Below are positions 55,253 to 60,593 of a stretch of 64,000 nucleotides of DNA, in pieces. Position 1 is the first letter of the stretch, and each line of letters begins with the position of its first letter. The DNA comes from Candidatus Bathyarchaeota archaeon. Lineage in GTDB: Archaea > Thermoproteota > Bathyarchaeia > Bathyarchaeales > Bathycorpusculaceae. The DNA is taken from assembly GCA_963806535.1 (NCBI GenBank), contig CAWDYC010000009.1, positions 96,001 to 160,000 of the forward strand, in the 5' to 3' direction. The translations under genes and the position numbers were made by a program. The notes beneath the pieces were generated by a model. The model was given only the letters and a program-made list of their open reading frames with translations, ran no database searches and was not told the DNA's origin.

Positions 55253-55558
55253 TTAAAGGGTTAAAATGCCCTTGCGTCGCAGCGTGTCAGCTTGTCCATG
55301 TGTGTAACGCCAAACGACATCGCCGCGTTTGTCAGTTTGGAAATCCCAAGGTGAAACAATAACGATGTCTCCTTCACGAATCCAAACACGCCGCTTCATT
55401 TTTCCGCGAATGCGGCATAAACGTTCAGCGCCATCCTGACATTTAACTAGGATGCGGTCGAAACCAAGCAGTTTAATAACTACGCCTAAGACTTCGCCTT
55501 GTCCAGGATAAACTAATTCGCCGATTGCGCCTTCGCTTAACACTTTTTTCTTTCCCAA
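55253..55558 (-). CDS. eif1A: Translation initiation factor aIF-1A
   Basis: RLCRIRGKMKRRVWIREGD..PWDFQ..RGDVVWRY. Confidence 0.96.
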   Translation of the reverse strand: MGKKKVLSEGAIGELVYPGQGEVLGVVIKLLGFDRILVKCQDGAERLCRIRGKMKRRVWIREGDIVIVSPWDFQTDKRGDVVWRYTHGQADTLRRKGILTL

Positions 55559-55897
55559 ACAGTAAACCTCATTCGACTTGAAAAATTAATGTTCCGCTTG
55601 CTTAAAAGCATGTTCATAAAATAAAGCGGAGATTTTGAACCTAAATCACTTTGAACTGAAAAAAGACAGCAATTGTTTGTACCTTAGCCTATTCATGGCT
55701 TTCTTTTGCAATTTAATCAGTAGATTTTCAAAAAGTTCCATTATATACGCTATGTGCAAAGTCCACCTCGCTAAATTAGCGAAGCCAAGTGTGCAAAAAT
55801 TTGATGCATTTCACTTTTTAGTGAATTTTGCTTGTCAAAAAGTTATAAGAACTTTTGAATGCTTTCTAAAAACTGAAACAAGAGGAGATTTTATTAA

Positions 55898-57247
55898 ATG
55901 ATTGTTGAAAAAGCTGAAAATCTCATCGACCATAGGGCTAAAACAAAGACAAAGCTTGCTTCGCAGGTAAATGTCGGTGATTGGAAAGACTACAGGTGGC
56001 AATTATATAATTCAATAAAAACCATTGCAGCTTTTGAAAAGTTTACAGGTATTACCTTCTCAAAAACAGAAAAAGGTGAACTTGAAAAAACAATTAGTAA
56101 ATTTCCGCTGTGCATTACACCTTACTATGCTTCTCTAATAGAGAAGGATAATTATCGGGACGACCCTATATTCAAGCAAGCTTTTCCTAATCCGGCTGAA
56201 CTTATTATTTCAGAGTGCGACATGAAAGACCCCCTTCATGAGGATATAGATAGCCCAACTAAAGGCATTACTCACCGATATCCTGACAGAGTCCTTTTTT
56301 TGGTGAGTAATCGATGCGCAATGTATTGTCGGCATTGTACAAGAAAAAGAAAGGTAGGAGACTCTGATTATATCCCGTCAAGAGAACAAATTCTTGCGGG
56401 AATTTATTACATTAGAAAAAATCGTCAGATCCGCGACGTCTTGCTTTCAGGAGGAGACCCACTCATGCTACCTGATGATTATCTAGACTGGATTCTTACA
56501 GAACTAAACAGGATTCCACATGTTCAAGTTATTCGAATAGGCTCACGAATTCCAGTTGTTCTCCCCAACAGAATAACCAAAGAACTCGTGCACATGCTAA
56601 AAAAACATCATCCTCTCTGGCTCAATACGCAATTTAATCATCCAAGAGAATTCACGCCAGCCTCACAAGAAGCACTGCGAAGGCTAGCAGATGCAGGCAT
56701 ACCGCTAGGAAACCAATCAGTCCTGCTGGCAGGTGTAAACGATTGCCCACACATCATGAAAAAACTCAACCAAAAACTCGTGGAAAACAGAGTACGTCCA
56801 TACTACTTGTTCCAATGCGACCTTTCAGAAGGCCTCTCACATTTTCGAACCCCAATTGGAAAAGGTATTGAAATAATGGAAAATCTTATAGGACATACAA
56901 GTGGCTTCGCAGTTCCTCGTTATGTGGTCGATGCACCAGGAGGGGGAGGAAAAATTCCTATTATGCCAAACTACATTATATCTTGGAACACAAACAAAGT
57001 GGTTTTGAGAAATTACGAAGGTGTCATCACCACATACAAGGAACCTGACAACTACTCAACCATCTCCTGCAGCAAAAACTGCAACAAATGTGCTTTGCAA
57101 TCAAACTTAGAAGGGGAAGAAGAAATCGCGACGGGGGTTGCAAAGTTGTTAACTGAAGACAATAGAACAATATCACTTGTACCGGAAGGAAATCTCAGAT
57201 TGAAAAGAAGAGAGAAAAAACAAGTCATGGGGTACATAAATGCTTAA
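55898..57247 (+). CDS. ablA: Lysine 2,3-aminomutase (KamA/AblA)
   Basis: [44 protein letters not shown] (PLP Lys), C-terminal Cys cluster. Confidence 0.93.
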
Positions 57248-57872
57248 AAGTCCAAGCCATCTCGAATTTAATATTCGAAACGTAACTTTGGAAGATATAA
57301 GCGAAGTGTACAAGTTACTCACCGCAAATAAACCATACGTGGGATTAAATTCCAGATACACCTATTTTCTTTTGGCTAAAGACTTCTCAGACACTTGCGT
57401 AGTTGCAGAACACAAAGGCAAAATTGTCGCATTTTCTTCAGGATATATCTCACCAACTAAGAAAGATACTTTTTTTAGTTGGGAAGCGGTAGTTCACGAA
57501 AATTACCGAGGAAATAATCTTCAAAAACATATGCTTGTTTGGCAATTAAGAATAACTGGAGCCAAATATTTTGAAGGCACAGTAAACCCTTCCAATGAGG
57601 CATCGAAAAGAAGTTTTCGTGGGTTAGCTCAGTTGCTTGAAACGAAATGTGAAGAACGATTATTGTTTGGTGAGGATGATTTTGAGAATGATGGTCACGA
57701 AGCAGAGATTTTATACCGGGTCGGCCCGATTTCGCCTGAAAAGCTATTGAGGAATTTGCGGTCTGTGGAAGGCAGAATCAGTGAAAGATTTGAAAGAGTT
57801 TTCAGTACCACTGACAGCAATAAAAAAGCGTCAAGAACTCTTGAAGATTTGTCGTGTAATTTGCCGAGTTGA
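57240..57872 (+). CDS. EctA-like (diaminobutyrate acetyltransferase family) GNAT acetyltransferase
   Basis: NSRYTY.L...[46 protein letters not shown] match the EctA pattern. Confidence 0.8.
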
Positions 57873-58027
57873 ATTGAAAAAGATACAAAATCTGACTTAG
57901 CGAAAATTATTCTTTTTGACTCTCAGATTAACCGCCATTTTTTTCTTTTACAATGTTCTTGTTCGCAGGGTTCAATGTAAGTTTAAATGTTAACACCGGA
58001 TAATCATTTTAATGGTGCATACGTCAA

Positions 58028-58843
58028 GTGTCGTACGTCTTTAACATACCATACCGAAACAACGCCAAACTCAAGCAGGTAATGGAACGAATAAAAGAAG
58101 ATAAGAAATTGCAGACTTATTGGAAATGTGCAAACGTAATGGCAATAGAACGAATGGGCTACACCGACCATGGTCCAACACATGTCAAAATCGTATCTAA
58201 CATTGCATTGAGACTTTTGCGCATTCTAATCGAAAAAAAACTCATAACACCTAGTATAGTTGAAAATTATAAGATGCAAAATGACGATGCCGAAGTCGTT
58301 GTTGTTTTAGGCGCAATCTTCCATGATTTAGGCATGATTGTTCAACGATATAATCACGAAAAATACAGTGCAACTTTGGCTTTAGAATTTCTCGAAAAGT
58401 GTTTAACGCCAACATACAATGAGGAGCAACAGGCAATAATCACATCAGAGGTTCTGCATGCCATCGTGTCCCATGAGCAACACCCAAGCAATGAACCAAA
58501 CCATAAAATACTGACAAAAGAAGCAGGAATTGTTGGTATTGCAGATGCCTTGGACATGGAAGCGGGAAGAGCACGAATACCCTTCCAAGCTGGCAAAGTA
58601 GACATACACGCTGTATCAGCACTCTCTATTGAGAAAGTTGAAGTTGAATGCGTTGAAAATATCAAGAACGGAGAAAAACCAATCAACATAAAAATAAAAA
58701 TGTCCAACTCCGCAGGCGTATTTCAAATCGACGAACTTCTTAAACCAAGAATTGTTAATTCAGGGCTGGAACAGTTCTTCCATGTAATCGCAGAAATCAC
58801 GGGTGAAAAAGAAAACAGGATCATAGAAAAATTCGAAATTTAG
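58028..58843 (+). CDS. HD-domain phosphohydrolase
   Basis: DHGPTH, FHDLG, SHE, ADALDM. Confidence 0.88.
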
Positions 58844-58863: not shown

Positions 58864-60593
58864 TTGATTCATAATTATGATGTCGTAGTTGTTGGCGGCG
58901 GAATCGCAGGATTATACACTGCTTTAACCGCAGCTGAAAAATGCAAAGTTGCCGTCGTCAGCAAAGTGCATGTTACACGTTCTCACTCAGTTGCTGCACA
59001 AGGTGGAATAGCTGCTAGCCTTGGAAACGAGGAAGAGGACCATTGGGAATGGCATATGTATGATACGGTTAAAGGCAGCGATTACCTCGCTGATCAAGAA
59101 GCAGTGGAAATTTTAGCTAAAGAAGCACCAAACACTATTGCCGCTCTCGAACACATGGGTGTACCCTTTACTCGAAACGTACAAGGCAAAATTGAGCAGC
59201 GCCGATTCGGAGGACACACAAGCCACTATGGAGCAAAAGCCAGTAAAACGGGCATGCTACGTTTCTGATCGCACAGGCAGAGCAATAATGGATACGCTCT
59301 ATGACCTTTGCCAAACTAAAGGAATAGACTTTTACAATGAATTTTTTATTTTGAAGCTGCTGTTTTCGAGGTGAACATTGCTGTGGAGCCGCTGGCTACG
59401 ATATTGCCAGTTGTGAACCGCATGTTTTCCATGCAAAATCAATTGTATTGGCGACTGGCGGAAGCGGCAAAATCTATAAAACTACATCAAACGGGTTTGC
59501 TTCAACAGCCGACGGATTCGCATTAGCTATGGATTCACTTATTCCTCTTGAGGATATGGAGTTTGTCCAGTTTCATCCAACTGGCATTTACGGCCTGGGA
59601 ATTCTTGTAAGTGAAGCAGCTCGTGCTGAAGGCGGAGTATTACGAAACGGCAAAGGTGAGCGTTTTATGGAACGTTATGCGCCCATTTTGAAGGATCTAG
59701 CTCCACGAGACATTATTTCAAGGGCAATATTAACTGAGATAAATGAAGGAAGAGGCGTAGAGGGCAAGGACTACGTTCATCTTGACTTGACACATAATCG
59801 ACAAAACAAAATTAATAGAAAAGCTACCTGAAATCTCATCTTTCGTTCAAACATACTTGGGTATTGATCCAAGTGAAACGCCTAGTTCCTGTGGCTCCTA
59901 CATGCCATTACATGATGGGCGGGATCCCCACTGATTCTGATGGCCGTGTTTTGGCGAATGAAACTGGCGCCGTTTTGCCAGGTCTTTTTGCGGTTGGTGA
60001 ATGCGCATGTGTCAGTGTTCATGGAGCAAATCGTTTGGGTTGTAACTCTCTTATTGATCTAGTAGTTTTTGGACGCAGGGCAGGCATTAGCGCTTGCCAC
60101 ACATGCCAAAGAAAAAGATTTGCCACTTCTTCCCCAGCAAGCCGAAAGCATTGTGGTTGACAGGATTAGCAATTTACTTAGTTCTTCTGGAAATGAGCAT
60201 GTGCCAGTTTTGCGGGAAGCTATGCAGCGTCTGATGACCGAGAAATGCAGCGTCTTTAGAAATGGCGATTTGCTTGAAGAGGCGCGAAACGAAATTTGCC
60301 AAATTGAAAAACGCTATCTGAATGTTGGCATACGTAATAAAAGCAAGATATTCAACTATGAGCTGCAAGAAGCATTTGAACTATGCAACATGCTAAAAAC
60401 AGCAAAAGCAATCGTTTTTTCAGCCCTTCAAAGAAAGGAAAGCCGTGGTGCTCATTACCGCAGCGATTTTCCTGAAAGAAATGATGAAAAGGGTTTGAGG
60501 CACGCACTGGTCCTTTTAACGCCAGAAGGGCTTAAAACCACTTACAAACCCGTGTCCATTACTCGTTTCACCCCTGAAAAACGGAGGTACTAA
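58864..60593 (+). CDS. sdhA: Succinate dehydrogenase/fumarate reductase flavoprotein (frameshifted into 5 ORFs)
   Basis: [48 protein letters not shown]. Confidence 0.93.

Follow-up and report, generated by a model that had tools for sequence, protein, structure and literature searches.

A 64-kb stretch of contig C9 of a Bathyarchaeia metagenome-assembled genome (MAG; Candidatus Bathyarchaeota archaeon, assembly GCA_963806535.1), hereafter the window, carries two overlapping genes on its forward strand: kamA/ablA, for a lysine 2,3-aminomutase, and a gene for a GNAT acetyltransferase related to EctA, the diaminobutyrate acetyltransferase of ectoine synthesis. We consider it probable, on the evidence of sequence, that these two genes together form a bicistronic operon, complete in itself, that serves to make an acetylated β-lysine solute, most likely Nε-acetyl-β-lysine. 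In this predicted route, an AblA-grade aminomutase dependent on radical S-adenosylmethionine (SAM) and pyridoxal phosphate (PLP) would turn L-lysine into β-lysine, and the coupled GNAT would move an acetyl group from acetyl-CoA onto the terminal amine of β-lysine. An EctA-descended GNAT with a remodelled acceptor side would perform the task of AblB, the acetyltransferase of the ablA–ablB pair of methanogens, and is best read as a putative non-orthologous replacement of that enzyme.

The aminomutase gene and its overlap with the acetyltransferase gene

The kamA gene (55898..57247, forward strand) is intact, starts with ATG and encodes 449 aa, as determined from the open reading frame (ORF) list, the NCBIfam model TIGR03820 and alignment to the structure 2A5H. 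The GNAT gene (57240..57872, forward strand), identified from the ORF list, the model TIGR02406, sequence matches in the PDB and the predicted fold, is also intact, with an ATG start and a product of 210 aa. Read directly from the sequence, the two genes share 8 nt (ATGCTTAA, 57240..57247, forward strand), with the GNAT ATG at 57240 falling within the final codons of kamA and the kamA TAA ending at 57247; this arrangement suggests translational coupling. An initial annotation, made from the letters of this DNA and its ORFs, had described an intact KamA/AblA overlapping a 210-aa GNAT by 8 nt and had credited the pair with its own upstream intergenic region. Both ORFs were recovered as described, and an AT-rich intergenic region of 339 nt lies between kamA and the divergent eIF-1A gene.

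The kamA product scores 738.8 bits on the AblA model (TIGR03820; cut-off 525.4) and falls under the cut-offs of the rival models of the KamA family, those for glutamate (469.8 vs. 650), arginine (373.8 vs. 600) and EpmB (245.2 vs. 369.3). Pfam recognizes both Radical_SAM and LAM_C (PF12544, 3.5e-42, residues 327–442), i.e., the full-length form of the enzyme, and the CxxxCxxC motif for the radical-SAM cluster reads CAMYCRHC. The protein matches the Clostridium subterminale structure 2A5H at an E value of 2e-150, and D293, D330 and K337 of the 2A5H chain align with D308, D345 and K352 of the kamA product. In the C. subterminale enzyme, we take D293 and D330 to be the residues that bind the lysine substrate, and K337 to be the PLP lysine. 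The preference for a lysine over a glutamate aminomutase, which the initial annotation had argued from the retention of these two aspartates, holds on both the aligned residues and the model scores. LysA is encoded in the genome above its cut-off (470.9 bits), and the genome would therefore supply its own lysine. Taken from sequence, the conversion of L-lysine to β-lysine by the kamA product is well supported.

A lysine 2,3-aminomutase might instead serve lysine fermentation, or some other use of β-lysine, with the GNAT acting in detoxification or regulation by acetylating excess β-lysine or a protein; Bathyarchaeia are widely discussed as amino-acid fermenters. We judge this highly improbable for the pair described here, given that the alpha subunit of β-lysine 5,6-aminomutase (PF09043) was not found in the genome, in a search whose control matched nowhere, that the loci have no fermentation genes in common next to the pair, and that the pairing of an aminomutase with an acetyltransferase mirrors ablA–ablB.

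Descent and divergence of the acetyltransferase

The GNAT (ACETYLTRANSFERASE) has a single NCBIfam match at E ≤ 0.01, to EctA (TIGR02406), and this match is marginal (125.8 bits vs. a cut-off of 120.6); the AblB model (TIGR03827) has no match in the protein at the same threshold. Its sequence matches in the PDB are all to EctA (3D3S, 2e-24; 6SJY and 6SK1, ~2e-22). An AlphaFold (AF2) model built on a 97-sequence alignment has a mean pLDDT of 88.6, with high confidence for residues 10–175 and poor confidence after ~180; the GNAT core comprises residues ~10–165. In a Foldseek comparison of this model with the PDB, the top 10 matches are all EctA chains (TM score by target 0.82–0.91, root-mean-square deviation 1.5–2.3 Å), and generic GNATs form the next tier, at E ~1e-8. 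The C-terminal tail (residues 166–210; 57735..57872) is modelled as a low-confidence helix (166–188) followed by predicted disorder; it is common only to the nearest relatives (208–213 aa), most members of the Bathyarchaeia clade described below having ~165–185 aa. By sequence and by modelled fold, the GNAT is in descent an EctA-family protein, neither an AblB nor a generic GNAT, and the EctA assignment that the initial annotation had made from its motif pattern is borne out by sequence, profile and fold. NCBI and JGI label these GNATs as diaminobutyrate acetyltransferase.

The genes that would accompany a genuine EctA or AblB were sought beyond the window. The initial annotation had reported none of ectB, ectC and ablB in the 64 kb, which we confirm, and the absence extends to the genome (91.75% complete). 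EctC was found neither there nor in any of four other pair-holding Bathyarchaeia genomes (94–98% complete); the built-in controls of this search matched nowhere, and a rerun on a Nitrococcus genome finds EctC at 177.4 bits. There is no true EctB in the genome, the best EctB-like gene scoring 233.6 bits against a cut-off of 552.2, and no AblB, which is over its cut-off in none of 61 related genomes either (best score 36.3 bits). The window locus is the only one in the genome to pass the EctA cut-off.

Within the EctA family, the Bathyarchaeia proteins stand apart. On the EctA model, five members of their clade score 120.2–133.3 bits, with one under the cut-off, and 39 of the 40 next-nearest proteins from a library of 1.84 billion proteins score 154–208 bits, the exception being P0131 (134.9 bits). 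Fusions to EctB or to regulators of MarR/EctR type, such as genuine ect genes would show, occur in three of these 39 EctA-type proteins. A phylogeny was calculated for 94 rows: 17 clade sequences, 10 of the P0131 family and 67 EctA-type sequences, the last consisting of every second representative together with two EctAs of Nitrococcus whose genes adjoin ectB. SH-aLRT support is 100 for the Bathyarchaeia clade, 95 for the P0131 family and 98 for the two together against all EctA-type rows; the tree was made by a quick method with no outgroup, and gives neither the root nor the direction of change. By profile, sequence and fold, the GNAT groups with neither AblB nor generic GNATs, and in the tree it occupies a separate branch in the EctA family, in agreement with the initial annotation's view of it as an EctA homolog.

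The branch is marked by a residue signature, obtained by comparing 33 clade sequences with 133 EctA-type sequences. EctA conserves L34 (97%), D35 (83%, with E in a further 15%), Q82 (99%) and A or G at position 95 (98%), and the clade has V, G, E and Q, respectively, at these positions in all 33 sequences. Position 82 is preceded by the invariant W81, and the W-Q of EctA on β4 is W-E in the clade. Other fixed differences are a one-residue insertion at 31 (R/K), Y33, F43, S66, Q102 and G113, while the catalytic-scaffold residues found across the family (Y40, Y42, W81, N119, H153 and E156) are kept in the GNAT. In the AF2 model, the signature maps to the α1–α2 loop (30–38), β4 (77–85), the start of α3 (94) and β5 (110–115). 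In the GNAT fold, such elements wall the acceptor site and form the turn that binds the pyrophosphate of CoA. The acidic residue is gone at 35 and one is gained at 82, a swap that would fit a relocated anchor for the head-group amine of the substrate; this link from signature to substrate pocket is drawn by analogy with the general architecture of GNATs. Asp33, Tyr38 and Trp79 of the P. lautus EctA, which are reportedly discussed in connection with its active site, would by alignment fall at positions 35, 40 and 42 or 81 of the GNAT; the argument here makes no use of them. The replacement of near-invariant residues is what a change of substrate would be expected to leave in the sequence. Considered across four marks of an EctA, the GNAT has the model score and the fold, and lacks two of the four, the pathway partners and the invariant residues.

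The P0131 family comprises 13 relatives at 52–64% identity, one of them labelled Oligoflexia by NCBI, and has the same Y-V-G, W-E and loop insertion as the clade. NCBI and JGI each name one of its members diaminobutyrate acetyltransferase. Of the metagenome scans for the genomic context of this family, one was without a match and the other yielded two loci at 34% identity.

Conservation and layout of the gene pair

The host genome (2.95 Mb in 12 contigs) is archaeal in its content around the pair, the neighbours in the window including eIF-1A, RIO1 kinase, a KH-domain protein and HMG-CoA reductase, and the close homologues of the GNAT have Candidatus Bathyarchaeota or Bathyarchaeia as their NCBI source names. 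In a set of 61 relatives, the GNAT occurs in 20 genomes, namely the window's own, 17 of 36 in the genus and two of three in family f7. By tblastn, kamA is directly 5' of the GNAT gene in 18 of these 20 loci. Counted from the side of the aminomutase, the AblA model is passed in the 61 relatives by 17 loci in 16 genomes, and all 17 abut the GNAT by coordinates; in two further copies of kamA, a frameshift or the end of a contig interrupts the gene. Neither among the 61 relatives nor among 301 genomes sampled evenly from the class, a set that partly repeats these relatives, does an AblA-grade gene occur in a genome that lacks the GNAT. In the class sample, 10 genomes, all of families f1 and f7, have the GNAT, and nine have an AblA over its cut-off, all of them within the 10 GNAT holders; in the tenth, the gene is split over contigs.

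Named GTDB species genomes yielded 38 related loci at 59–76% identity, with kamA directly 5' of the GNAT gene in 36. These loci are labelled Bathyarchaeota, Bathyarchaeia, Thermoproteota or Crenarchaeota, with one contig labelled Acidoferrum, and their isolate names mostly indicate an origin in bogs, in a peat experiment or in a survey of soils. The pairing, on whose conservation in relatives the initial annotation's proposal depended, is far beyond chance. Across 30 measurable loci, the spacing between the two genes ranges from -32 to +49 nt, with a median of -4 (start codons were picked by a heuristic). A single record goes further: P0292, an ENA gene call of 505 aa, joins KamA residues ~158–446, in the same frame, to a complete GNAT (79% and 73% identity to the window proteins for the KamA and GNAT parts, respectively); this could reflect either a genuine fusion or an indel introduced by long-read assembly. 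A second candidate fusion, P0287, has FtsX/MacB domains and a partial match only, and was set aside as a probable gene-call artefact.

The flanks of the pair vary. The HD-domain gene and sdhA/sdhB/fumC that lie 3' of it in the window recur in just the six closest loci; in the others, the neighbours are a membrane GT2 glycosyltransferase, a ThiI-like gene, IS605 OrfB, major facilitator superfamily transporters and aminotransferases. Across these differing flanks, only kamA and the GNAT gene are common to the loci, and the pair moves as a unit. The GT2 glycosyltransferase (~370 aa, membrane) is absent from the window and is located on the same strand 3' of the GNAT gene in many of L042–L072, the family being represented in 25 loci; its position may reflect shared gene-order ancestry or a functional link.

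Upstream of kamA in the window, the sequence TCAAAAA followed by TTATAA (55832..55849, forward strand), ~50–65 nt 5' of the ATG, can be read as a putative archaeal BRE/TATA promoter element. The pattern TC[AC]A[AG]AA-N1-6-[AT]TAA occurs 59–77 nt 5' of kamA at 22 of 35 related loci, compared with 36 of 1800 windows of 163 nt drawn at random from those loci (2%). A small palindrome 5' of the TATA-like box was found in seven of 35 loci vs. nine of 1800 random windows, and we make no claim for it. Seven loci (L044, L049, L052, L055, L056, L059 and L067) are without the TCAAAAA...ATAA element and have, by eye, a leader inverted repeat (AACAAGC ... GCTTGTT) ~110 nt 5' of kamA, followed by a T-run before the ribosome-binding site; this leader could form a regulatory hairpin. 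A Shine-Dalgarno-like site in the window (GAGGAG, 55882..55887, forward strand) is situated 10 nt 5' of the kamA start, and T-rich tracts 3' of the GNAT stop (57910..57949, forward strand) may be an archaeal terminator for the two genes. An Rfam scan of 55400–58200 returned nothing near any gathering score, and an 88-aa ORF (55635–55901), which has no Pfam match and sits in the promoter region, was taken as spurious. A search of sequencing runs listed no RNA run as a holder of the sequence, and the DNA runs it listed had only 5–8% of the sampled words in common with it.

Directly 3' of the pair in the window is the HD-domain gene (271 aa, 58028–58843), which is 84–95% identical in the six loci that keep it and is probably not part of the kamA–GNAT unit. 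Beyond it, a succinate dehydrogenase/fumarate reductase flavoprotein gene (58864–60593) is broken into four ORFs (58864–59268, 59448–59831, 59864–60160 and 60069–60593), and is a single ORF of ~574–580 aa in the related loci L037 and L038. The split flavoprotein gene and a purD in three frames suggest assembly indel errors or pseudogenes; kamA and the GNAT gene are intact.

Predicted product and relation to known pathways

We take yodP–kamA of Bacillus subtilis to be a comparable two-gene unit. The ablA–ablB pair of methanogens is known from 2003 work, as described and cited in passages of PMC9128505. The Bathyarchaeia unit resembles ablA–ablB in having two genes, an aminomutase followed by a GNAT, in the AblA grade of the aminomutase, and in the predicted chemistry from lysine through β-lysine to acetyl-β-lysine; the GNAT gene has the placement expected of ablB, directly 3' of ablA (in 36 of 38 loci) with an overlap of 8 nt in the window. 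It differs in that the acetyltransferase, of 210 aa, is without a match to TIGR03827, has its GNAT core at the N-terminus and is of EctA descent, and in that the host is a member of the Bathyarchaeia and not a methanogen. The same protein is like EctA (3D3S, 6SJY, 6SK1 and 6SLL) in family by profile, sequence and fold, with many invariant residues in common, and unlike it in having kamA as partner instead of ectB/ectC, in its separate branch, in a score ~30–80 bits lower on the EctA model, and in L34V, D35G, Q82E, A/G95Q and the loop insertion. The proposal of the initial annotation, that an EctA homolog was recruited to acetylate β-lysine in place of AblB, is supported as far as sequence goes, the substrate and the product being predictions.

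Several observations weigh against the production of acetyl-β-lysine by this pair. Two MAGs of the same genus as the window (G028, 66% complete, and G009, 56% complete, matching loci L039 and L040) have an intact GNAT with the full signature, in synteny (eIF-1A, GNAT, HD gene) and without kamA, and no KamA was found elsewhere in either MAG at these levels of completeness. At L039 (4655–5030), the kamA promoter region is kept and the GNAT frame opens with the first codons of kamA (ATGATTG...); kamA has been cleanly deleted, with an intact GNAT left under the operon promoter. The deletion was probably one event, because both MAGs share the same flanks and are close relatives, and it represents either a recent loss or a use of the GNAT without KamA. 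In addition, the GNAT is still over the NCBI equivalog cut-off for EctA, with which activity on diaminobutyrate would be compatible, and the habitat, judged from record titles, is mostly peat or soil and not saline, so that the role of an osmolyte is less obvious.

The first two of these points would be accommodated if the GNAT acted on 2,4-diaminobutyrate, ornithine or α-lysine independently of KamA, with the adjacency reflecting co-regulation of two stress functions: the protein passes the EctA cut-off (125.8 vs. 120.6 bits), and both kamA-less MAGs keep it behind the kamA promoter. We regard such a role as decidedly unlikely. In the genome, neither an EctB-grade enzyme that would supply diaminobutyrate nor EctC was found, the near-invariant residues of EctA are replaced, and the two genes overlap or nearly overlap in the 30 measurable loci. 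Furthermore, every AblA-grade KamA in the 61 relatives and the partly overlapping 301-genome sample is accompanied by the GNAT, and the kamA-less MAGs are mutually close, consistent with one event, and both incomplete.

For an acetylated β-lysine, the position of the acetyl group is the next consideration. EctA acetylates the terminal amine of 2,4-diaminobutyrate, a shorter diamino acid than β-lysine, and terminal (Nε) acetylation is for this reason the simplest carry-over to the new substrate. The pair might alternatively make another derivative of β-lysine and hence a new solute, such as Nβ-acetyl-β-lysine, a diacetylated form or one bearing a non-acetyl acyl group; the GNAT is not an AblB, its acceptor-side elements are unlike those of both AblB and EctA, and the record titles of the related loci mostly point to isolates of bog, soil-survey or peat-experiment origin and not to saline sites. 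We find this alternative unlikely, in view of the terminal specificity of EctA and of the lack of any extra tailoring enzyme conserved with the pair. If the product is acetyl-β-lysine, its role in these habitats may, speculatively, lie not in salt tolerance but in protection from drying, freezing, acid or ammonium stress.

Other families of Bathyarchaeia have a KamA-like gene in a different setting. In 25 further genomes of the class sample, a shorter form (~370 aa) scores 467–517 bits, under the AblA cut-off. In all four loci examined (L089, L092, L103 and L106; 479–517 bits), it lacks the LAM_C end and is flanked by one or two D-Ala-D-Ala-ligase-like ATP-grasp genes. No ligase is beside the kamA–GNAT pair in the window or in any of the 38 loci, and the genome has no extra PurD-like ligase, its single purD locus being the one in three frames. 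Because of the lack of both, the two-gene, ligase-free form is a module distinct from the ligase type.

Full-text searches, whose scope was the open literature and not subscription journals or supplements, returned no paper on a kamA–ectA-like pair or on β-lysine genes in Bathyarchaeia. None of the best 20 of 110 full-text matches for Bathyarchaeia with ectA or diaminobutyrate acetyltransferase contained the string 'bathyarchae', and passages of a 2018 ectoine review (PMC5924519) name only Nitrosopumilus, Methanosaeta and Methanobacterium as archaeal holders of ect genes. From its sequence features, the unit probably makes the stress solute acetyl-β-lysine by an undescribed route, what is new being a minimal form of only two genes, its confinement to two families of Bathyarchaeia that are mostly from soil or peat, and the residue signature. 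A broader proposal, which we hold to be doubtful, is that the whole 'PYVG / WE' branch of EctA, i.e., the Bathyarchaeia clade and its small sister family in bacterial MAGs labelled Oligoflexia, would be an unrecognised class of β-lysine acetyltransferase, through which peat and soil Bathyarchaeia would make an acetylated β-lysine solute; in its boldest form, the product would differ from the methanogen osmolyte, as a new isomer or derivative that protects against drying, freezing or acid, and D35G together with Q82E would have re-targeted EctA from diaminobutyrate to β-lysine.

If the predicted function is correct, a second, evolutionarily independent type of enzyme would complete the acetyl-β-lysine pathway, and abundant, uncultured archaea of soil and peat would join methanogens and a few bacteria as known makers of this solute. 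It would also offer a clean case in nature of a few fixed replacements shifting an enzyme of ectoine synthesis to a longer diamino acid, which would be of use to enzyme engineers and in interpreting the substrate specificity of GNATs. Lastly, it would correct an annotation error, as the label diaminobutyrate acetyltransferase would wrongly imply ectoine synthesis in Bathyarchaeia.

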